Origin: Candidatus Parcubacteria bacterium
GTDB taxonomy: Bacteria; Patescibacteriota; Patescibacteriia; Patescibacteriales; UBA12075
Assembly (NCBI GenBank): GCA_002869165.1
Contig: PKTK01000001.1
Span: 446,005-510,004 of the forward strand
Direction: 5' to 3'
DNA: 64,000 nucleotides
Shown here: positions 9,082 through 62,183 of the stretch, one piece after another
How positions within the stretch are numbered: position 1 is the stretch's first letter
How the letters are laid out: each line of letters starts with the position of its first letter
Made by a program: the position numbers and the translations under genes
The notes under the pieces: model-generated
Database searches by the model: none
Seen by the model: only the letters and a program-made list of their open reading frames with translations
Told to the model about the DNA's origin: nothing

Positions 9082-9263
9082 GTTTTAATTATACAATAGA
9101 AATGGGTATTTTAGCAAACCCATCAAATTACATAATATAAACATTTAAATAAAGGTGGTTTAACACAACGAATACTATTAACCACATAAATTATGTAATT
9201 TGTTTAAAAAAAATTTATTAATTGTTTTGGTTTTACCGCTATTTACTGCCAATCTTTACTTGC

Positions 9264-9362
9264 ACGCTTCTCAGGATGGGTTCGAATAATCTTTGTCAAC
9301 TCAAAATAAAAAATCGCCTCTTCGAGACGATTGTTTATTCTGAGCCGACAAAGGGACTCGAA
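9264..9362. repeat. 99-bp direct repeat, copy 1 (terminator flank + last ~20 nt of tRNA-Thr)
   Basis: Nearly identical to 9447-9545; ends ...gccgacaaagggactcgaa, the T-loop-to-3' end of tRNA-Thr, then diverges. Confidence 0.85.
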
Positions 9363-9446
9363 GAGGCGGAAGCCTCACACCCTCATTTTTTCATTGTAGT
9401 ACTATATTGTTAGCCATTCCTAGATTTAGTGCTAGTTTTTTCTTCT

Positions 9447-9545
9447 ACGCATCTCAAGATGGATTCGAATAATCTTTGTCAACTCAAAATAAAAAATCGC
9501 CTCTTCGAGACGATTGTTTATTCTGAGCCGACAAAGGGACTCGAA
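9447..9545. repeat. 99-bp direct repeat, copy 2 (overlaps the real tRNA-Thr 3' end)
   Basis: Same sequence as 9264-9362, offset 183 bp. Confidence 0.85.
9488..9514 (-). terminator. terminator after tRNA-Thr
   Basis: Minus strand cgtctc-gaa-gaggcg hairpin followed by atttttt; the same hairpin follows tRNA-Lys. Confidence 0.55.
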
Positions 9546-10742: not shown

Positions 10743-10765
10743 TTTAAATCTATGATATTTATTTT

Positions 10766-10797
10766 TGTCATTTCGTAGCGAAGCGGAGAAATCCCTT
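10766..10797. repeat. GTCAT-hairpin element, single arm
   Basis: tgtcATTTCgtagcgaagcggaGAAATccctt; internal 5-bp stem around GCGAAGC. Confidence 0.65.
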
Positions 10798-11008
10798 AAA
10801 CACTACAAAATCATAAAACAAAAAAACATCAAAAGTATTAAAATTTTATTTAATAATAGCTAAAATTAAAACAAACTGCCCTAACGGCAGAAGTTGCATT
10901 ATTAATATAACAAATAAATTAAATTTTGTAAAGAGTTTAAAAATAGTGGAAAAATAGTGGAAAAATAAGCTAATTCCAAGCTTGTCTTAAGCTAAAAACT
11001 CCTGTACT

Positions 11009-12782: not shown

Positions 12783-12791
12783 TCCTGCCTT

Positions 12792-12903
12792 TGTCATCTC
12801 GCAGCGAAGCGGGGAGATCCCTTATACATTTTAATTTGTAATGGTGAAGCGATTTACCACAGGCACCTTGTCTCCAGTCGTTTCACTCCTTACGAAATGA
12901 CAA
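12792..12903. repeat. GTCAT-hairpin element
   Basis: Left arm tgtcATCTCgcagcgaagcgggGAGATccc, right arm ...cgtttcactccttacgaaatgacaa; abuts the recR 5' end. Confidence 0.8.
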
Positions 12904-12943
12904 ATATCTGAACTATCCAAATTCTATCCAAAATCTAATAGAC

Positions 12944-18643: not shown

Positions 18644-18719
18644 GTGCCATTCAGAGCAATGCGAATAATCTCGTTTTTTCTATTATTTACAAGATGCTTC
18701 GTTTTGTTCAAGATGACAC
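18644..18719. repeat. GTCAT-hairpin element (degenerate termini)
   Basis: gtgccattcagagcaatgcgaataatctcg ... agatgcttcgttttgttcaagatgacac. Confidence 0.7.
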
Positions 18720-18732
18720 CTAAAAAAGAATA

Positions 18733-18762
18733 TTCTTAATTCTTAATTCTTAATTCTTAATT
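18733..18762 (+). repeat. (TTCTTAA)4 heptamer array
   Basis: Four perfect units plus TT, 13 nt after the hairpin element and 2 nt from the uppS stop codon. Confidence 0.95.
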
Positions 18763-18764
18763 GA

Positions 18765-19466
18765 CTAGTCCCCTCCTCTTCTCCTATCTCTTTCGGCATA
18801 TTCATTCACAATAATCTGTGCATCAATCTTCTCAAAATCAGGCCAATACTTTTCTATAAACATAAGTTCAGAATAATTACTTTGCCACAATTGAAAACCA
18901 GATAGTCTCTTTTCTACACTAGTACGAACAATTATATCAGGATCAATCAAATCTTTTTGGTAGAGGTATTTTTTTATCATTCCTTCATGAACTTGATCTA
19001 CTCCAATATTATTCTTTACCATCTTTTTGATAGCATCAACTAATTCTGCTCTACCGCCATAATTAATACAAATATTTAAAATACCTTTGGTATTGGTTTT
19101 TGTCTTTTCTACTGCTTCCCTGCACACTTCTGGTAAATCTCCAGGTAATTCTTCAATACGACCTGTTATTAAAAGTCTAATATTCCTTTCGTTAAATGCT
19201 TCAAAATCTTTCGTAAGAGCATTCTTTAATAGTTTCATTAAATAGTTAACTTCCTCCCTTGAGCGACTCCAGTTTTCTGTTGAAAAGGCATAAACCGACA
19301 CAATCTCAACACCCAAAGAAAAAAACCACTCAGGTAAATTTATCATCACCTCATATCCTCTTCTGTGACCTTCTATGGTGGGTAAATTTCTTTCTTTAGC
19401 CCATCGTCTATTCCCATCCATTATTAATCCCACATGGATTGGTATTTTTTTTATTTTATCTTCCAT
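18765..19466 (-). CDS. uppS: isoprenyl transferase (undecaprenyl diphosphate synthase)
   Basis: HVGLIMDGNRRWA, SVYAFSTENWSR, RTSVEKRLSGFQLWQSNYSEL. Confidence 0.9.
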   Translation of the reverse strand: MEDKIKKIPIHVGLIMDGNRRWAKERNLPTIEGHRRGYEVMINLPEWFFSLGVEIVSVYAFSTENWSRSREEVNYLMKLLKNALTKDFEAFNERNIRLLITGRIEELPGDLPEVCREAVEKTKTNTKGILNICINYGGRAELVDAIKKMVKNNIGVDQVHEGMIKKYLYQKDLIDPDIIVRTSVEKRLSGFQLWQSNYSELMFIEKYWPDFEKIDAQIIVNEYAERDRRRGGD

Positions 19467-28833: not shown

Positions 28834-28959
28834 TGTTTCTCCTTTGTTTTTATCCTTGTTATATGAAGATACTTATATATTAAATTCTAAAATCTAATAC
28901 CTAAATCCTAAATAATTTCAAAATTACAATTCTTTAAATTCAAAAAAATTTCTATTAAT

Positions 28960-31552: not shown

Positions 31553-31658
31553 TGTCATCCTGGGGCTCGGAATGAAGTGAAGAGAACACGGGATCCAGTA
31601 TCATTCTATCACGTATAAGGGATTTCTTCAGTCGTTCCACTCCTTACGAAATGACAAG
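31553..31658. repeat. GTCAT-hairpin element
   Basis: tgtcatcctggggctcggaatgaagtgaagagaacacgggatcc ... gggatttcttcagtcgttccactccttacgaaatgacaag. Confidence 0.75.
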
Positions 31659-31722: not shown

Positions 31723-32523
31723 TTAAAGTGAGAATCTTACAAACTTTTCAATTTTAGCATCTCCGAGAACATCTTCAATTTTTTTCTTATCATCTTTGAT
31801 AAATTCTTGCTTTAGAAGACATACTTCAGAATAATATTTTTCAATTTTTCCTTTCAAAATATTTTCAATAATATTTTCTGGCTTACCTTCTTTTAGAAGT
31901 TGCTCTTTATATATTTCTTTTTCCTTGTCTGTTTCATCAGCTGGAACTTCACTAGGATCAATATATTTAGGACTTGAGGCAGCAATATGCATGGCAATGT
32001 CTTTAGCTAGTTCATTATCGATCTTTTTGTCAAATGATACTAAAACACCAATTTTACCACCCATATGAGAATAAGCAGCTACTGAACCATTTTCTGATTT
32101 TAGCATTTCTATCCCTTTAACGCCCATTTTTTCGCCAATTGTTCCACTTAGATTATCTAGGGTTTCTTGAGCTGTTCCTTCTGACATGGGTTCTGCCATT
32201 AACTCTTCAAGTGAAGCTGGTTTTTTACTTTTTAGAATTTAAAATAACTCTTTGGCATAAGCTTGAAATTTATCGTTTTTTACAACAAAATCAGTTTCAG
32301 CGTTTATTTCAAAAGCATAACCTTCGGTATTATCTTCATTTGTTTCAACTAACACAATACCTTCATTGGTTTCTCTTTCACCTCTTTTAGCTGCTTTTGC
32401 AATTCCTTTTTTACGTAGGATCTCTACTGCCTTTTCAATATCTCCGCCAGTCTCATCAAGAGCTTTTTTACATTCAACCATGCCTGCTCCTGTTTTTTCA
32501 CGAAGTAATTTAATTTTTTCCAT
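31723..32523 (-). CDS. tsf: elongation factor Ts, single in-frame TAA at 32239-32241
   Basis: ORFs 32239..32523 and 31723..32199 are in one frame; UBA-like N-terminus [24 protein letters not shown], then ...KPASLEEL...IGEK... and C-terminal module; downstream of rpsB. Confidence 0.9.
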
Positions 32524-32533
32524 AGAATTCGTA

Positions 32534-32662
32534 TGTCATTGCGAGCGACAGCGAAGCAATCTCGATTTTTTACAATGACTTTAAATATTATTTATTCATT
32601 ACGAAAAATTCAAGCGATATATTCATGAGATTGCCACGTCGCTTCGCTCCTCGCAATGACAA
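32534..32662. repeat. GTCAT-hairpin element (best-preserved copy), inside the rpsB-tsf intergenic region
   Basis: tgtcATTGCgagcgacagcgaaGCAATctc ... gagATTGCcacgtcgcttcgctcctcGCAATgacaa, ~70-bp AT-rich spacer. Confidence 0.85.
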
Positions 32663-32668
32663 AAGTTT

Positions 32669-41454: not shown

Positions 41455-41534
41455 GTGTCATTCTAAACGTAAGTGAAGAATCACATGGCTCAATAATTTT
41501 AAACCGGGATTATTCGCTCCGCTCAGAATGACAC
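41455..41534. repeat. GTCAT-hairpin element
   Basis: gtgtcATTCTaaacgtaagtgaAGAATcac ... ggattattcgctccgctcagaatgacac. Confidence 0.8.
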
Positions 41535-41547
41535 TTAAAGAAGAGTA

Positions 41548-41584
41548 TTCTTAATTCTTAATTCTTAATTCTTAATTCTTAATT
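41548..41584 (+). repeat. (TTCTTAA)5 heptamer array
   Basis: Five perfect units plus TT, 13 nt after the hairpin element, 4 nt from the sortase stop codon. Confidence 0.95.
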
Positions 41585-41588
41585 AATA

Positions 41589-42260
41589 TTAATTCTCGAT
41601 TGGTTCTGCTATAACAACCAAACGATTTTCAGTTGAATAAATTGGAGTACAGGTAAACATGGTTAATCTAGGCTCGACAGTCTGGTCCATGATGCTTATT
41701 TCTGTTTCAGGAACCACCTTGGTTTCGATTATATGGTAATTTATCTCTTCTTTATTCCATAAAACAGTAACTAAGTCCCCTTTCTCTAGTTTATCAAAAG
41801 AATAAAAAGTCACATTATGGGGCGGTAGATATTTAAACCTGTGGCCTGTAATAACAGTATTTCCTCCTTGATCAGGCGTAGAAGAATCTGGCACTCGCCA
41901 AGCACCCATGGAAAGTCCTTGTTGTTCATTATCAGACTCCACAATTGGGGCATTTACGCCTATTTTAGGGATTATAAGCCTATTTGGGGATACATCGTAG
42001 TCAATACTAGGCAAAACGCTATTTATGACCCTTTTGTGCGCTTCTAGGCTAGTGGTGGCATTCGAACTCTCATATGGCACAAATTCTACTTTATCCTCAT
42101 ATTTAAACTTATAAACCAACCAGGGATAAAAAGGAAATAAAAGCAAATAAAGCAAGATTAAAACTGCTAAAATCTCTAATCCATAAATAAAATATTTTAA
42201 TATTTTTTGCTTGTTAATATTCATAATTTTATTATAACACAAATAAATAACAGAAAACAT
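41589..42260 (-). CDS. sortase family transpeptidase
   Basis: N-terminal TM, catalytic His (VITGHR), Cys motif LTMFTCTP (TLxTC), Arg (NRLVVIAE); likelier start MNINKQK (42224). Confidence 0.85.
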   Translation of the reverse strand: MFSVIYLCYNKIMNINKQKILKYFIYGLEILAVLILLYLLLFPFYPWLVYKFKYEDKVEFVPYESSNATTSLEAHKRVINSVLPSIDYDVSPNRLIIPKIGVNAPIVESDNEQQGLSMGAWRVPDSSTPDQGGNTVITGHRFKYLPPHNVTFYSFDKLEKGDLVTVLWNKEEINYHIIETKVVPETEISIMDQTVEPRLTMFTCTPIYSTENRLVVIAEPIEN

Positions 42261-49490: not shown

Positions 49491-49519
49491 TGTCATTCCT
49501 GCGAAAACAGGAATGACAA
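49491..49519. repeat. minimal GTCAT hairpin
   Basis: tgtcATTCCTGcgaaaaCAGGAATgacaa. Confidence 0.7.
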
Positions 49520-49674
49520 AAAAAGTAAGAAATATTATAAGGTGGTGATAATACTATTCTAATTTATATCAAAGGGATAATTATATTCATCATGAATAAC
49601 AAAAATGAAATTAGGAATCACAAAAAATACTAAAATATAAAATTAAAATACACCATACAAAACTTTTATTCAAA

Positions 49675-54838: not shown

Positions 54839-56275
54839 CTATTCGGCTTTTCTCTCTCGAATGACAGCCAAAGGAGTCCTAAGTAAAATTGATAAATCAA
54901 GAAGCATTGACCAATTTTCTATATAATATGTATCTAATTTTACTTCTTCATCAAAGCTAAGATCGGATCTTCCTGAAATCTGTGCAAGACCAGTGATGCC
55001 TGGTTTGATGGCAAAAACTTTCTTATGTCTTGATTCGTAAAGCGCTGTTTCCATGGTCATGTGGGGTCTGGGGCCAACCAACGAAATGTCTCCTCGTATT
55101 ACATTGAATAGTTGAGGTAACTCGTCAATGCTCCAACGTCTGATAAACTTCCCTACCCTGGTAATGCGAGGATCGTCTTTGATTTTGTGAAGCTGTTGAT
55201 CATTTCTGGTGTTAAGACGAGAATCAGCGGCTAACTTTTGCATAGCTTTATTGCCAGCGTCAGTGGCTGAGGGACCTTCACCATCGCAAAGATCTGCGAC
55301 CATTGATCTAAATTTAAAAAACAAAAATCTTTTGCCATATTGGCCAGTTCTATAATCAAGGTAGAGTATTGGCCCCCTTGAATCAATCTTGATAGCAATT
55401 ATAGCTAGTAGCATTACTGGCGACAAAACAATTATCAAGATTAATGCTGCTAAAAAATCAGCTATTCTCTTGGCTATCCTCCCCCAACCATCAAGTGGTG
55501 TCTTCTTAACTTCTACAACGGGGATACCAGATAGTTCAGACACTTCGGTCTTTAAAACTTTGGTGCCAAGTAAATCTGCTGCATATTTAAAAGTAAGATG
55601 ATTTTCATCTGCAAAATCAAAAAGTAATAGAGTTTCAGCCTTGCTTAAATTTGGGTCTGACTGAATAATCTCATCAACTTCCTTGCTTTTCAAAAATTCG
55701 AATACTTCCTGAGAAGTTTCTATTTTAAAATCCCTAACTCTTTTTACGATATTATAACCAATTCTTTTGTTAGTTGAAAACTCCTGCATCAAGACATCGG
55801 TAGTTTTTGTATTTCCCACTAGTACAACATTCCTAACTCCAATACCTTTTTTAAAAAGAAGCCTTTGGAAAAGTCTAATCAAGATTCTGTATAAAGAAAT
55901 ATAAAGAATAGCAAATAACAATCCGGCTAATACAATAAAACGAGAGTCAAATAGCTCTCGTTGCATAAAAATTAATATCACAATAAACATGAAACCAGTT
56001 GAACAAGCTGACACCACCGCATAAAATTCTTTCACAATCTTTTTGGTTCCTTTGATATTATAAAGACCTAAAAAAGCAAAAATAATTACCCAAAGAAGGG
56101 CAATTAAAAAAAGTGCATTTAAATAATCTCTAAACGGCAAAGTAAAAATAGCCGGTATTATACTAGTAGTAAAATCGGCAAAACGAATATAATATGCTGT
56201 TAGTCCAGCTAGTACTATCGCAATGTAATCTAGTGGAACTAACAAAAATGAAAAAAATAATTCTGAACGCTTCAT
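54839..56275 (-). CDS. polyprenyl-phosphate glycosylphosphotransferase (WbaP/EpsB-type priming sugar transferase)
   Basis: N-terminal TM bundle, C-terminal bacterial sugar transferase domain (RWSIDELPQLFNV, GDISLVGPRP, KPGITGLAQI); likelier start MKRSELFF (56275). Confidence 0.85.
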   Translation of the reverse strand: MKRSELFFSFLLVPLDYIAIVLAGLTAYYIRFADFTTSIIPAIFTLPFRDYLNALFLIALLWVIIFAFLGLYNIKGTKKIVKEFYAVVSACSTGFMFIVILIFMQRELFDSRFIVLAGLLFAILYISLYRILIRLFQRLLFKKGIGVRNVVLVGNTKTTDVLMQEFSTNKRIGYNIVKRVRDFKIETSQEVFEFLKSKEVDEIIQSDPNLSKAETLLLFDFADENHLTFKYAADLLGTKVLKTEVSELSGIPVVEVKKTPLDGWGRIAKRIADFLAALILIIVLSPVMLLAIIAIKIDSRGPILYLDYRTGQYGKRFLFFKFRSMVADLCDGEGPSATDAGNKAMQKLAADSRLNTRNDQQLHKIKDDPRITRVGKFIRRWSIDELPQLFNVIRGDISLVGPRPHMTMETALYESRHKKVFAIKPGITGLAQISGRSDLSFDEEVKLDTYYIENWSMLLDLSILLRTPLAVIRERKAE

Positions 56276-56403
56276 ATTTATTATAATTCTAATACTACGA
56301 ATAATATCCAAATACTACAAAATATAATTCGTAGTACCCGGATAAAATTATAGATTAGTATCATTTTTGGTCTTTTCAAGGCAGAAATAAGCCGGATTCT
56401 GTC

Positions 56404-56566
56404 AGAAGCTACTGGCTATAATTACTTTGATTAAATCACTTTTAAATTTTGAGGAAATTTTTTTGAAATTTTTTTTAGCAATATGGATATATTGGTCAAA
56501 AAAATTTAATAAAAATTTACCGAAATTTAAAATGATTTTGCAATGAAATTATAGCCAGTAGCTTCT
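56404..56566 (-). other. insertion 2 in rnpB: 20-bp perfect stem with a 123-nt AT-rich loop
   Basis: agaagctactggctataatt (56404-56423) pairs with aattatagccagtagcttct (56547-56566); sits immediately 5' of the conserved ACAGAAUCCGG. Confidence 0.8.
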
Positions 56567-56665
56567 ATGTATAGTTATTTATCTAGGCCTACTGTTACCA
56601 GTAAGCTCATGCGAACTACTTATAACCAGAGCGAAGTTCTGCAAACTCCAAACTAAATACTGTTT

Positions 56666-56762
56666 TGTCATCTCGTAGCGAAGCGGAGAGATCTCTTAAA
56701 TGCAAATAGCTTCACGTCTAAGGGATTTCTCCATTCGCTCTCGCTCCTTGCGAAATGACAAG
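56666..56762. repeat. GTCAT-hairpin element inserted inside rnpB
   Basis: tgtcATCTCgtagcgaagcggaGAGATctc ... gggatttctccattcgctctcgctccttgcgaaatgacaag, at the tip of the helix formed by ccagaacgaagttct/agaacttcgctctgg and aaatact/agtattt. Confidence 0.85.
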
Positions 56763-57070
56763 AGTATTTTTTAGAATTTCTAGAACTTCGTTCTGGCTTT
56801 GTTCTTGCTCCAGGTAGGGTTTACCACGAACATGCTGTCACCAGCAGTCGAAATTAGTAGCCATTTGTCTCGAGAACAAATAACACCTAAAAACTTTTCA
56901 CCTTTTATCTCGACATATGTCGAAACTAGTATAGTCTCTGCGGCACTTTCCCTAGGGTTTCCCCCGGTGGATGTTATCCACTACCCATAACCAGAGCGAA
57001 GCTCTGGCTGGAGTCCGGACTTTCCTCCCCGTTTTAATTTTGAAACGAGGCAACTATATATCTGCCTTGA

Positions 57071-57104
57071 AAAAACCAAAAGGGCAAAACTGCACCCTTT
57101 TGGG
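57071..57104 (-). terminator. terminator after the small-membrane-protein genes, abutting the rnpB 5' end
   Basis: ccaaaaggg-caaaactgca-cccttttgg with a T-run on the minus strand. Confidence 0.7.
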
Positions 57105-57114
57105 TTGTATTTAT

Positions 57115-57405
57115 TTAAGGAGCTTCTTTGGCTTCTCGCATATTTTTTGCATATGCAGAATCCAACTCTTCTTTTGTTTTGATTATGTTTTTATTCGCTC
57201 TCCTTCTTTCAAAAAAAAGCAAAAAAATTATAATCAAAAAAATAACTGAGAACGCCCCGCCTGAATCTTCATTGAATAAATTACTCAATGAGATCAAGAA
57301 ACAAAGCAAAGAAGCGATCATGCAGATCCCATAGACACCCTTCCATATTCGCTGGTTTTCGTACTTTCCTTCGAGCACCTTGGCTTTGTCAATTTCAGGA
57401 TTCAT
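57115..57405 (-). CDS. small 2-TM membrane protein E
   Basis: Soluble N-terminus, two TM helices, basic tail ERRRANKNIIKTKEELD similar to the tail of 57395..57649. Confidence 0.5.
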   Translation of the reverse strand: MNPEIDKAKVLEGKYENQRIWKGVYGICMIASLLCFLISLSNLFNEDSGGAFSVIFLIIIFLLFFERRRANKNIIKTKEELDSAYAKNMREAKEAP

Positions 57406-57649
57406 TCGCGCCCTCTTCTAACTGTGATTTTATGGTATTGATTTTCCTTTTGCTCACTACGACGTTTATAATAACACCAATTGCAAGCAGCAGGCAAATT
57501 GAACCGACAACAACTGACTTGTAAAAAGATAACGCTGACAATAACAGCAGTGGAATAATCCACTGAAGACTAATCTCTAATGAAAAATCTTCTACTCTAA
57601 TTTCTGCAAATGCTACATCGTCACTCGCCATAATCTCAATATCTGTCAT
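57395..57649 (-). CDS. small 2-TM membrane protein D
   Basis: Likely start MTDIEIMASDD (57649); two TM helices; tail SKRKINTIKSQLEE; 11-nt overlap with the next gene; TTGACT-17-TATGAT promoter-like pair near 57740-57710. Confidence 0.5.
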   Translation of the reverse strand: MTDIEIMASDDVAFAEIRVEDFSLEISLQWIIPLLLLSALSFYKSVVVGSICLLLAIGVIINVVVSKRKINTIKSQLEEGANES

Positions 57650-57822
57650 CTCTCTTCTCCTTAAATTTGTTAATAAAAAGTACACAATCTTCTAAAAAGA
57701 ATATATAATATCATAGCAAAAAATGCTTAATTAGTCAAGTTCAAATATTATGATTTTATTTAATGTTAGCTAATTATCTAAAAATAAAAAGCGTATTCTT
57801 ATTAAGAAATACGCTTAAATTC

Positions 57823-58254
57823 TTATTTTTCCCTTTCTCCTCTTTCAAACTCGCACTCTTTTTCAAAAATCTCTGCTTCTCTGCCTAAAACCATGCAAAG
57901 AATAATTATAGATGGAATTAACATAAAAACCCCAAACAGCCGCCCCATAACACCATTATCATACATCAGATGTAGCAGTAATCCACAGAATAACACTACA
58001 ATGGGAAAACTTGTTATTAATTTCTGCTTGTAGAGGGTAATTTCTGGACTGACCTCCCCTTGCTCGATTCTATAACTATAGTCAAGCTCAACGAGAATAT
58101 CTAAACATACCACAAATGCAATAAATGATACTATGGAAGCTATCACTACCAGTGGAATATTCTCATAACAAATCCAGGCAGCAACGACTAATACTATTGC
58201 CAGATATATCAGCTTAATTACGGTTCGAATACTTTTTACAGTTTTTTCTTTCAT
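57823..58254 (-). CDS. small 4-TM membrane protein C
   Basis: 143 aa, four hydrophobic helices, acidic C-terminus; hairpin terminator aagcgtatt/aatacgctt follows at ~57789-57815. Confidence 0.5.
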   Translation of the reverse strand: MKEKTVKSIRTVIKLIYLAIVLVVAAWICYENIPLVVIASIVSFIAFVVCLDILVELDYSYRIEQGEVSPEITLYKQKLITSFPIVVLFCGLLLHLMYDNGVMGRLFGVFMLIPSIIILCMVLGREAEIFEKECEFERGEREK

Positions 58255-58296
58255 TATTTCTCCTCTAAAAAATTACTTTTCTTAGAAAAAAATTTA

Positions 58297-58482
58297 TTAT
58301 CCAAGTGCCGTCTTAAAAATATAGCAACCTAACCCCGAAAAAACTAAAGTAAAACTGGAATAAACAATAATTTTATTAACTAGTGTTACCTTTTCTTCTT
58401 TTTCAAAATATGACTCAGGAATTCTAAAGGTTATCCCGATAAATATTCCAAAAAAAATTAAGACACTGCCGATTGTGTTCAT
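58297..58482 (-). CDS. small 2-TM membrane protein B
   Basis: 61 aa; ATGA overlap with the upstream gene. Confidence 0.45.
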   Translation of the reverse strand: MNTIGSVLIFFGIFIGITFRIPESYFEKEEKVTLVNKIIVYSSFTLVFSGLGCYIFKTALG

Positions 58483-58766
58483 TTTTTTATCTTCTCCTTA
58501 AATTTATATTCTATTTCAACAAGTTCTACGTCGTCTTTGAAGGAAAATATTGCAAAAAGTATCATCATAAATACCATCACTACTTGAAATGGTATTTTCA
58601 TATAAGTTAATGGAATGAAAAAATTCGCAAGCACAGCAAGTATTCCAAAGTAAATCGATGTCAGTTGCCCATCAACTACTAATGACTTCATGTTGGCTAA
58701 AATCAATCCTCTAGTAAAATTTGGTCCATAAGAAACTACTGCGGGTTTTTCTCTGAACATTTTCAT
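58479..58766 (-). CDS. small membrane protein A
   Basis: 95 aa, two TM helices, first gene of the cluster. Confidence 0.5.
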   Translation of the reverse strand: MKMFREKPAVVSYGPNFTRGLILANMKSLVVDGQLTSIYFGILAVLANFFIPLTYMKIPFQVVMVFMMILFAIFSFKDDVELVEIEYKFKEKIKK

Positions 58767-58801
58767 CTCCTATTTTAAATGAACGATTTATTTGATTACC
58801 T

Positions 58802-58830
58802 ATATTAGAATATTTAAGTGCTTTTGTCAA
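58802..58830 (-). promoter_or_regulatory. sigma70-like promoter for the small-membrane-protein cluster
   Basis: Minus strand TTGACA (58830-58825), 17 nt, TAATAT (58807-58802). Confidence 0.45.
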
Positions 58831-58838
58831 TTTTCGCT

Positions 58839-59017
58839 TGTCATTCTGAATGAAGTAAAAAATCCCAAGAACGTCGCAATAAATTATAATATTCTTCTCC
58901 GCAAGCTAACAGATTAGAATGACAAGTGGAAGAACTTTGTTCATGATGGCTGTCACCTGTGGTGACCTGCCTATCCCCACGTCCAAGGGATTCTTCGCTT
59001 ACGCTCAGAATGACAAC
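58839..59017. repeat. two adjacent GTCAT-hairpin elements
   Basis: tgtcattctgaatgaagtaaaaaatccc...ttagaatgacaag (58839-58926), then ...gggattcttcgcttacgctcagaatgacaac (to 59017). Confidence 0.75.
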
Positions 59018-59029
59018 TAAAAAGAAATA

Positions 59030-59078
59030 TTCTTAATTCTTAATTCTTAATTCTTAATTCTTAATTCTTAATTCTTAA
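59030..59078 (+). repeat. (TTCTTAA)7 heptamer array
   Basis: Seven perfect units, 13 nt after the hairpin element and 46 nt upstream of the ATG at 59124. Confidence 0.95.
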
Positions 59079-59123
59079 TCCAAAACCCTAGCCTTTCCTT
59101 TGTGAGAATGATACAATTAAAAC

Positions 59124-60221
59124 ATGATCAAAAAAATCTACAAAAAAACTAAAGCTTGGCTTGATAAATATGAAAAATACCTCTCGCCCGTTGCCATGGG
59201 CTTTGGTTTTGTTATTGACAATCTAACACTCCAAAGAATCGATCTTTGGATTGAGAACCTGGTCATTATCACTTATCTTTCTATTGCTGTTTTTTCTATT
59301 CTCTATCTAAATATTTACAAAAAGAAAAAATATAAAAACCGTTTCTTGTCCTTGCTAAATCTGATTTTACCTTTTATTCTACAAATTGTTTTTGGTGGCC
59401 TCTTCAGTGCTTTTATGGTTTTTTACTCCAGAAGTGCTACCTTATTTGTTAGCTGGCCTTTTCTCCTGATCCTCGTATCAATGTTAATTGGAAATGAACT
59501 TTTTCGTGAGCGCTATGAACGTCTAAATTTTCACCTTAGCATATTATACCTAGCTTTCTTTGCCTATTCAGTTTTTGCGGTACCTGTCTTAGTAGGAAGA
59601 ATAGATGTTGATATTTGGATGGCTAGCGGTGGTCTTAGTCTGCTTTTGATAATTGTAGTTATACTGCTACTTCATCGAATTGACCCTGAAGCCATAAAAA
59701 AGAACAAGGATTATCTACTCGGAAGCATTATCTTCATCTACGCACTTTTCAATGTCCTCTATTTTACCAACCTTATTCCACCTATACCTTTAAGTTTAAA
59801 ATCTGCTGGCGTCTACCACGGAATCAATCGGAGTGATTCAAGATATGAACTTTTTTTTGAAAAGCCAGCCTGGTATGAATTTTGGAAAGAAACTTCTAGC
59901 ACCTACCATTGGCAAAAAGGAGAAAGAGTCTATATCTTCTCAGCTATCTTTGCTCCTACTCGCTTCAAGCAAAAAATATACCACAAATGGCAAATCTATG
60001 ACGAAGAAAACAATGAATGGTTAGAACGTGATAGACTTGGTTATTCAATATCTGGTGGTAGAGATGGAGGTTACCGTGGATATACATATAAAACTAATTT
60101 GGAACTTGGAAAATGGCGAGTTGATGTGATTACTGATGATGAAAAAATAATTGGCAGAGTGAAGTTTGAAATAATAGAAAAAAATTCTGATTTGATTTTT
60201 GATCAAGAAATAAACAACTAG
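59124..60221 (+). CDS. DUF2914-type membrane protein
   Basis: ~7 TM helices then a C-terminal beta domain ...YHKWQIYDEENNEW...GGYRGYTYK...GKWRVDVITDDEKIIGRVKFEI. Confidence 0.65.
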   Translation: MIKKIYKKTKAWLDKYEKYLSPVAMGFGFVIDNLTLQRIDLWIENLVIITYLSIAVFSILYLNIYKKKKYKNRFLSLLNLILPFILQIVFGGLFSAFMVFYSRSATLFVSWPFLLILVSMLIGNELFRERYERLNFHLSILYLAFFAYSVFAVPVLVGRIDVDIWMASGGLSLLLIIVVILLLHRIDPEAIKKNKDYLLGSIIFIYALFNVLYFTNLIPPIPLSLKSAGVYHGINRSDSRYELFFEKPAWYEFWKETSSTYHWQKGERVYIFSAIFAPTRFKQKIYHKWQIYDEENNEWLERDRLGYSISGGRDGGYRGYTYKTNLELGKWRVDVITDDEKIIGRVKFEIIEKNSDLIFDQEINN

Positions 60222-60264
60222 GTTTACAAAGCATAAAAATACAAAGATAAAAAAATACCAACAA

Positions 60265-60480
60265 AAATAACCAAACAATATTTAATGTTTGGTTATTTTT
60301 TATTTCTAATTTGTTTGTTTCTTATATCCTTGTATCTTTCAAATCCCAACGAAGTCAAAAAATATCATAGTTAATCCCAATATTCTCGAGATTCTTCGCT
60401 TCCGCTCAGAATGACACTAAGGAGAAGTATTCTTAATTCTTAATTCTTAATTCTTAATTCTTAATTCTTAATTCTTAATT
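60265..60480. repeat. composite intergenic repeat, copy 3 with (TTCTTAA)7
   Basis: AACCAAACA-n8-TGTTTGGTT + T-run (60269-60300), tail ctaatttgtttgtttc, right arm gagattcttcgcttccgctcagaatgacac (60388-60417), seven TTCTTAA units + TT (60430-60480). Confidence 0.85.
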
Positions 60481-60501
60481 GATAAACCCATTAATCCAAC
60501 C

Positions 60502-60945
60502 CTACACTCCATAAACACTTCCCTCCGACAACTTCTTTAATATCTCCTCCTTCAAATAATCACTCAATTCCCTATCAAGTTTTGGATAGAGAGTACCTGC
60601 TTCGAGAGCTTCATGTTTAGCCAGGATATCTTTCAAGTCATCAACAGTTTCCTCATCAAGTCTAGCAAAATCAACCAACATTCTTCTAATCTGACTATGC
60701 TCTTCCAAGAGTTTGACAAAGATTTGCTTCATTTCATTACTTCCAATATCTTCTATGTTAAAAATCGCCTGTTCCTCTAGTTTCATGTGCGCAAGTAGAT
60801 CATCCTTAAAGCTCTTGATAAGTTCGAGCATTTCTTTTTTATCTACAACAGATCCATCCAAAATTTTATTAAATTTGGCGAATATCACTTTGTGCTCGTT
60901 GCTCATTAAAAATGTTATTGAATTTTGCATATTTTTAAAATTCAT
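60502..60945 (-). CDS. hemerythrin-like (HHE cation-binding) domain protein
   Basis: Four-helix pattern with H/E ligand motifs (NEHKVIF, LLAHMKLEE, LLEEHSQIRR, LAKHEALE). Confidence 0.65.
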   Translation of the reverse strand: MNFKNMQNSITFLMSNEHKVIFAKFNKILDGSVVDKKEMLELIKSFKDDLLAHMKLEEQAIFNIEDIGSNEMKQIFVKLLEEHSQIRRMLVDFARLDEETVDDLKDILAKHEALEAGTLYPKLDRELSDYLKEEILKKLSEGSVYGV

Positions 60946-62086: not shown

Positions 62087-62098
62087 GTAATAATTCCC

Positions 62099-62168
62099 AT
62101 ACTACAAATGGTATCCGAATAATACAAATATATAATTATTCGTAGTATTCGGATACCATTTGTAGTAT
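62099..62168. other. 23-bp perfect inverted repeat with 24-nt loop
   Basis: atactacaaatggtatccgaata ... tattcggataccatttgtagtat, between the 593-aa gene stop and the tgt start; related words at 56291-56336. Confidence 0.8.
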
Positions 62169-62183
62169 TTGGATTATACTATT

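Follow-up and report, generated by a model that had tools for sequence, protein, structure and literature searches.

A Parcubacterial RNase P RNA gene of nearly double length, probably expanded by palindromic repeats at two peripheral sites

The subject of this analysis is rnpB, the gene for the RNA of ribonuclease P (RNase P), in a 64-kb stretch of Candidatus Parcubacteria DNA (GenBank assembly GCA_002869165.1, contig PKTK01000001.1, positions 446,005 to 510,004). We refer to this whole stretch as the window; it is ~11% of its 584-kb contig and has a G+C content of 33.6%. The Rfam model of bacterial class-A RNase P RNA, RF00010 (RNaseP_bact_a), gave a minus-strand match at 57069..56537, scoring 157.2 bits (E 9.1e-49) where the gathering score is 100. 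A first-pass annotation, made from the letters alone, had placed the gene at 56375-57070 with all of the universal type-A blocks in order on the minus strand. The gene is real and each of the blocks lies where it was put, including AGTGCCGCAGAGA and GGTAAACCCTACCTGGAGCAAG, although the proposed span was 3 nucleotides (nt) wider than the 693-nt gene that we define here (Table 1). Relaxing the threshold to E<=1 brought up no second RNase P match in the window. We also found no match to any group I or group II intron family in the window at that threshold, and both of the inserts described below are simple hairpins.

At the 3' end of the gene the Rfam alignment fails. There the model pushes the ACAGAA/P1 region onto the beginning of the second insert, and we rejected that part of the alignment. 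Alignment to relatives together with pair counts puts the true 3' strands of P4 and P1 beyond that insert, at 56402-56377, and the gene therefore runs for 693 nt from P1 to P1 and spans both inserts. For the pair counts we took P1, P2, P3 and P4 in an alignment of eight sequences (the window and seven relatives), with P4 written as a pseudoknot. Across both inserts 96.3% of the cells were paired, and 19 of the 31 pairs had changes on both sides. None of 500 shuffles reached these values, and controls in which the strands were slid dropped to 30-49% paired. By helix, pairing was 90% for P1, 100% for P2, 96% for P3 and 100% for P4. Both-sided changes were present in 18 of the 23 pairs of P1-P3, plus one further isolated pair; P1 alone had five in nine. 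P4, which forms from GGAGGAAAGUCCGG and ACAGAAUCCGGCUUA, has all 7 pairs in 8/8 sequences and, being invariant, offers no covariation evidence. Every column that is invariant among the seven relatives is retained in the window. When the full 695-nt stretch is folded by minimum free energy, the inserts are separate hairpins, and P1, P2, P3, P12 and P18 still form. A covariance-model alignment had been suggested as a check on the core helices; with the Rfam score above gathering and P1-P4 paired to this extent, they are supported. By its conserved blocks and its pairing, the locus is a bacterial class-A RNase P RNA gene with an intact catalytic core.

The peripheral helices of class A (P12, P13, P14 and P18) were placed with high posterior probability by the RF00010 alignment. 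Between P5 and P7 there is a further hairpin (Table 1), whose position is occupied in the related loci L081-L084, L001 and L005 and empty in L039. One 15-nt string, CTTCGCTCTGGTTAT, is present twice in the gene, at 56991-57004 (the 3' half of this post-P5 hairpin) and at 56626-56640 (the 3' strand of P16), and RRGTAG follows both copies. The duplication would allow a strand-swapped alternative pairing where other class-A RNAs form the P6 pseudoknot. Typical, but not universal, in the P15/P16 internal loop (L15) is a GGU motif that binds the 3'-CCA of tRNA. The window RNA does not have this motif, its loop being AAAG / UUAUAAGUA, and CCA is not encoded by either of the two tRNA genes in the window. 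Since the GGU/UGG motif is missing in 23 of 35 Candidate Phyla Radiation (CPR) genomes (Lui et al. 2021, PMC8172020), its absence is no argument against class-A membership.

Table 1. Positions of rnpB, its parts and the associated features, numbered from the first letter of the window.
Feature	Position	Strand	Remarks
rnpB, bacterial class-A RNase P RNA gene	56377..57069	minus	693 nt, P1 5' strand to P1 3' strand
P1 5' strand CAAGGCAGA	57069-57061	minus	pairs with 56385-56377
Conserved region GGAGGAAAGTCCGG, includes P4 5' strand	57028-57015	minus	invariant in 8/8 aligned sequences
Hairpin CCAGAGC-TTC-GCTCTGG between P5 and P7	56991..57007	minus	formed in minimum-free-energy fold
Expanded P16 arm, one continuous hairpin	56626..56796	minus	171 nt; fold -75.5 kcal/mol, z -9.8
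Insert 1, GTCAT palindromic repeat nested at P16 arm tip	56666..56762	minus	97 nt, ends TTGTCAT...ATGACAA
P18 hairpin GCTTACTG-GTAA-CAGTAGGC	56587..56606	minus	Rfam alignment, high posterior probability; formed in predicted fold
Insert 2, palindromic element between P2 3' strand and ACAGAA (P19 position)	56404..56566	minus	163 nt
Conserved region ACAGAATCCGGCTTA, includes P4 3' strand	56402-56388	minus	invariant; pairs with P4 5' strand
P1 3' strand TCTGCCTTG	56385-56377	minus	partner of P1 5' strand
Terminator-like hairpin of upstream 96-codon gene	57076..57103	minus	ends 6 nt before P1
Terminator-like hairpin after rnpB, 17 pairs	56305..56344	minus	precedes sugar-transferase start codon
Two antisense open reading frames, not genes	56799..56990 and 56971..57249	plus	overlap rnpB on opposite strand
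GTCAT half copy	10763..10800		20 nt from tRNA-Lys 5' end; 91-92% identity
Paired GTCAT copy	12789..12905		intergenic, between ybaB-like and recR-like reading frames
GTCAT half copy	31609-31658		BLAST match to insert 1
Paired element, TGTCAT...ATGACA ends	32533..32663		intergenic, between rpsB-like and tsf-like reading frames
GTCAT mini copy, 34 nt	49491-49525		related copy in the window

Directly downstream of rnpB is a gene for a sugar transferase (polyprenyl glycosylphosphotransferase). This arrangement is conserved: rnpB is directly upstream of the transferase gene in ~70 of 80 related Patescibacteria loci that we fetched with the protein. The closest relatives found were L081-L083, whose transferases are 77-79% identical to that of the window. 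Their rnpB genes, at the same genomic position, are compact (353-383 nt; Rfam scores of 206-215 bits), which bears out the near-double length that was first noted for the window gene. In the alignment to these relatives only two large blocks differ, at the places that had been named for the two insertions. The first block, between CAAAG and TTATAAGTAGTTCGC, is the P16 hairpin, with 171 nt in the window (56796..56626) and 14-25 nt in L081-L083. The second, between AACTATAC and GACAGAA, has 163-167 nt against 2-3 nt in L081-L084; the empty P2/P4 junction reads ACTATACTAGACAGAA in L083 and ATCATTTAGACAGAA in L005. As aligned, both expansion blocks are lineage-specific and absent from the nearest relatives.

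At the tip of the expanded P16 arm is insert 1, a short, non-coding element with terminal inverted repeats that folds alone as a single hairpin. By BLAST it is 85-92% identical (E 3e-11 to 1e-4) to copies in the window at 10763-10800, 12790-12903 and 31609-31658. The paired element at 32533..32663 was recognised by the shared GTCAT module and its hairpin fold and not by BLAST similarity to insert 1, and further GTCAT half-sites are present elsewhere in the window. The genes that adjoin the GTCAT copies are housekeeping genes. Judged by these copies, the GTCAT family is dispersed and intergenic, and insert 1 is one of its complete, paired members, as the first-pass annotation had proposed. The element had no match to a known RNA family at E<=1, and literature searches for the GTCAT motif sequence, as well as on MITEs (miniature inverted-repeat transposable elements) in rnpB and on the RNase P RNA of Patescibacteria, found nothing relevant.

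The placement of this element at the tip of a long helix was also correct, but the expansion of P16 is 171 nt and not the 97 nt of the GTCAT element. The other ~74 nt are an extension of the helix, whose two strands read GCCAGAACGAAGTTCTAGAAATTCTAA... and ...TTTGGAGTTTGCAGAACTTCGCTCTGG. These strands resemble the ends of the P16 arm in another related locus, L003, with 23/30 and 27/38 identities, and 0/1000 and 1/1000 shuffles scored as high. From this resemblance, the P16 expansion looks like two nested events, with the GTCAT element inside an older extension.

The GTCAT module has a second arrangement in the window. There are arrays of the heptamer TTCTTAA (5-8 units) at 18719-18791, 41520-41606, 59002-59102 and 60402-60502, each of which adjoins a single GTCATTCTGAGCG...GCGAAGAAT half-site. 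We also observed that the EF-Ts-like frame (31723-32523), which has GTCAT elements on both sides, is split into two open reading frames (ORFs), 32523..32239 and 32199..31723 on the minus strand, that are ~40 nt apart.

Insert 2 is at the P19-like position to which it was first assigned. The perfect 20-bp terminal stem that had been described for it stands; the 123-nt loop does not, because the whole 163 nt fold as one long imperfect hairpin with ~75 bp of nearly continuous pairing (-56.1 kcal/mol, z -11.8), and its arms are 82% complementary over their full length. A palindromic relative of 170 nt is present at the same P2/P4 junction of rnpB in L004. Global identity between the two is 64% (score 133 vs 61 +/- 9 for shuffles) and rises to 75% over the central 94 nt. 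L004 and L005 are sisters with rnpB cores ~90% identical; in L005 the junction is empty, and a 94%-identical copy lies ~40 nt past the end of rnpB, immediately ahead of the start codon of the transferase. L087 also has an element related to insert 2 downstream of rnpB. With a pattern made from the conserved centre, a metagenome scan found related elements in two unrelated contexts (L086 and L088). One more match from the scan, L089, was rejected, as its likeness to the AT-rich pattern seems due to chance. TTAG is present on both sides of the L004 element, and the window copy is without a clean duplication. Going by these contexts, the relatives of insert 2 appear to be a dispersed, mobile palindromic family. 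Since neither the closest relatives of the window nor those of L004 have the element at the P2/P4 junction, the two most likely acquired their members of this family in separate events at this shared site.

Alternatively, the expansions could be selected, lineage-specific functional domains instead of mobile DNA that is tolerated, such as docking sites for a protein or an RNA. Relatives of insert 2 are present at the same P19 site in two distant lineages, and the perfect 20-bp base of the element is better kept than its interior. We nevertheless regard this explanation as improbable, since elements of the insert 2 type lie away from rnpB both in L005, the sister genome, and at unrelated intergenic places. 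Moreover, the GTCAT element is an intergenic repeat of a generic kind, and the nearest relatives do without either insert.

For a wider view of rnpB sizes we measured the distance between the two P4 strands in 67 related loci, the window included. The median was 331 nt. The distance was above 500 nt in 8 of the loci (L027 661, L003 634, the window 625, L049 547, L040 534, L004 532, L029 508 and L056 502). The comparison with relatives that had been called for finds both inserts absent in L081-L083 and a similar expansion in ~12% of related genes. One of the large genes, rnpB of L003, is 699 nt and has a ~165-nt hairpin in both P12 (3412-3576) and P16 (3699-3863). These twins are 99.4% identical and could have come from a double insertion or from gene conversion within one RNA gene. 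GTCAC-type hairpins are at the P19 position in L064 and L056. The rnpB of L029 was missed by Rfam at the gathering score. Altogether, palindromic hairpins that resemble MITEs were seen at P12, P16, the P19 position and the P5/P7 hairpin, and genes for GIY-YIG nucleases in the loops of P3 or P12. The AT-rich core of the L003 element also matches the window at 28882-28946 (80% over 66 nt).

These other loci bear on whether the repeats were misjoined into rnpB during metagenome assembly. Repeats commonly cause misassembly and this genome is metagenome-derived. However, the GTCAT copy in rnpB is just 85-92% identical to the other copies, so reads from them would not collapse, and insert 2 is unique within the window. 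The sequences that flank both inserts continue the same helix. Inserts of this kind are also present in independent assemblies from other studies (L003, L004 and L064), in one case at the site occupied in the window. We consider an assembly artefact exceedingly improbable.

The GIY-YIG ORFs inside rnpB have 84-88 codons and are at 3113-3364 in L004, 3344-3592 in L059, 467-720 in L054 and 429-692 in L027. In L004, L059 and L054 (where it is frameshifted) the ORF is in the P3 loop and ends ~25 nt before GGAGGAAAGTCC. The L027 ORF is inside P12 and matches Pfam PF01541 with 47.5 bits against a cut-off of 22.6. The rnpB of L004 reaches ~900 nt, with the GIY-YIG ORF, an insert in the P5/P7 hairpin and the P19 element. 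We considered whether the GTCAT elements could be satellites of small GIY-YIG genes and found this unsupported in the window, as the ORFs next to them are ybaB-, recR-, rpsB- and tsf-like; a tblastn search of the window with two of the GIY-YIG ORFs from the relatives' rnpB gave no match.

The explanation that we favor, and in which we have considerable confidence, is that the window has an orthologous, working rnpB into which MITE-like palindromic repeats were inserted at the DNA level, in two outward-facing sites that leave the core intact. The 97-nt GTCAT element would have been inserted into the older ~74-nt helix extension at the tip of the P15-P16 arm, and the 163-nt element at the junction of P2 and the 3' strand of P4, which is the natural P19 site. 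Having its own inverted repeat, each element is expected to fold as an autonomous long hairpin that prolongs P16 in one case and makes a giant P19 in the other. Because each element pairs with itself in this way, the core (P1-P4, the conserved regions and the specificity domain) would be unharmed. Such insertions probably survive since only sites at helix tips are tolerated. We infer from the sequence that the RNase P RNA of the window is active. With the corrections given above, the comparison with relatives also supports the suggestion of the first-pass annotation that the repeat family can colonise an essential structured RNA.

Several observations weigh against this explanation. The sequence of the P16 stem is wholly unlike that of the relatives, which makes the exact insertion point of the outer extension undefinable. 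There is no consistent direct repeat in the flanks of four GTCAT copies, nor is there a consistent target-site duplication across the copies of the insert 2 family. No transposase was linked to either element; for the GTCAT element no transposase search was made. Insert 2 has no second copy in the 64-kb window. A promoter scan found no promoter-like site directly upstream of rnpB on the minus strand, and its matches elsewhere in the scanned sequence were not above chance. Finally, beyond the window the genome may have another rnpB that is compact, or an RNase P made of protein only.

This last point is the basis of a different explanation, in which the window rnpB is a decaying pseudogene that was inactivated by the repeats, with RNase P supplied by another rnpB or by a protein-only enzyme. 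The inspected sequence is ~11% of the contig, which leaves room for such a gene, and the Rfam score of the window gene (157 bits) is below the 200-228 bits of its relatives. We attribute the lower score to the inserts and the misaligned 3' end. The invariant core positions are all kept and the pairing of P1-P3 is maintained with compensatory changes. In addition, complementarity between the arms of insert 2 has fallen to 82% with no loss to the core; divergence in the interior of the insert and not in the core argues against a gene that was dead on insertion. The locus is at the conserved rnpB position, and several independent lineages have comparable insertions with intact cores. On this evidence we think that a pseudogene is very improbable.

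A rival that deserves more weight agrees with the favored explanation on the origin of the inserts and differs solely in the fate of the RNA. The inserts may act like the intervening sequences of ribosomal RNA (rRNA), with RNase III excising the hairpins so that the mature RNA consists of 2-3 fragments joined by P1, P4 and the stumps of the stems. In insert 2, the terminal stem of 20 perfect bp and the almost unbroken pairing over ~75 bp are compatible with this, as is the ~80-bp hairpin formed by insert 1 and the extension. By analogy, both inserts are at helix tips, as rRNA intervening sequences are. Split or circularly permuted RNase P RNAs are active in vitro. On the other hand, the stems of the inserts are A-U rich and interrupted by bulges, and they may or may not be cut by RNase III. 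We see excision as a serious possibility that falls somewhat short of an even chance. Within the favored explanation, we judge it about equally probable that the hairpins are retained in an RNA of ~690 nt and that they are cut by RNase III with the pieces staying base-paired.

We also offer a broader proposal, which is tentative and which we ourselves regard as rather doubtful. The rnpB gene of Patescibacteria may time and again receive mobile DNA of several classes, in every case at helix tips. The RNAs of 700-900 nt that result may either exceed all known bacterial RNase P ribozymes in size or be the first that are naturally fragmented. The related elements at the P2/P4 junction in two lineages would then reflect a target preference, beyond survivorship alone. 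In the literature that we could search, there was no report of MITE-like elements or nuclease genes within bacterial rnpB.

The transferase gene has its start codon at 56275 and its product is 100% identical to the protein C0583_02450. Locus tags C0583_02450 and C0583_02460 belong to the genes on either side of rnpB, so that a single tag remains between them for an RNA feature. Neither of the two ORFs on the opposite strand (Table 1), which the first-pass annotation had dismissed as artefacts, occurs in a collection of 15 billion proteins, and neither matches a Pfam family. In L083 the order is tgt, a hemerythrin-like gene and rnpB; the window has ~3.4 kb extra between the hemerythrin-like gene and rnpB. 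This extra DNA (57115-60300) includes several small ORFs that resemble membrane proteins, and GTCAT half-sites and heptamer arrays lie at its borders.

Other repeats were observed in the window away from rnpB. A strong palindrome of ~84 nt at 62092-62175, just past the tgt-like ORF, had sub-threshold matches to microRNA precursors on both strands and is probably another hairpin repeat. There is also a direct repeat of 122 nt (92% identity) at 9241-9362 and 9424-9545, adjoining tRNA-Thr. Its second copy overlaps the 3' end of tRNA-Thr. A terminator-like hairpin within this copy recurs after tRNA-Lys.

The presence and absence of inserts among close relatives amounts to a natural map of insertion tolerance in an essential and ancient ribozyme, which would accommodate more than 150 nt of foreign helix. 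The tolerant sites would be the P16 tip, the P19 position, P12, P3 and the P5/P7 hairpin. It also appears that, in these reduced genomes, genes for structured RNAs can take up small palindromic repeats. Expansions of this kind would explain why RNase P RNA is frequently missed or truncated in CPR genomes; the covariance model lost the 3' end of the window gene and missed L029 entirely.

CPR RNase P RNAs with 'large extensions of helices', for example an extended P15, have been described, and RF00010 fails on them at default thresholds (Lui et al. 2021, PMC8172020). There, unlike here, the extensions were not ascribed to repeats or mobile elements and presence and absence were not compared among close relatives. 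The RNA of the window is from the same organism group and is likewise without GGU in L15, and L029 likewise falls below the gathering score.

Enlargement of RNase P RNA at the periphery is also found outside of bacteria. The nuclear RNase P RNA of Candida glabrata is ~1.1 kb and has big insertions in peripheral helices around a normal core; it resembles the window RNA in this respect, although the enzyme is eukaryotic and nuclear. To our knowledge, its insertions are not copies of dispersed repeats. Intervening sequences in 16S and 23S rRNA, and the rRNA insertions of CPR bacteria, are extra helical segments at helix tips that vary between close relatives. They are often removed by RNase III with function kept. 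The likeness to the window is in helix-tip inserts within an essential RNA, and the difference is that the host here is RNase P RNA.

The inserted elements themselves have an architecture similar to that of the Correia elements of Neisseria and of REP/BIME palindromes, which are short and non-coding, have terminal inverted repeats and are present as many dispersed intergenic copies. Those elements are co-transcribed with neighbouring genes, and their hairpins can be cut by RNase III. The elements of the window have no sequence similarity to them and are without an established target-site duplication or binding protein. We know of no insertion of these families into a ribozyme gene.

The closest parallel in rnpB itself is with the STRR repeats, which reportedly occur inside the rnpB of heterocyst-forming cyanobacteria. 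There, as in the window, a genome-wide repeat family has entered a peripheral helix of a class-A RNA and lengthened it without destroying the enzyme. The STRR are short tandem heptamers in P12 that add tens of nt, whereas the elements in this member of the Patescibacteria are palindromic, MITE-like and ~100-165 nt long, are at P16 and the P19 position, and nearly double the length of the RNA. By this analogy, repeats within rnpB would have a precedent in the cyanobacterial STRR.

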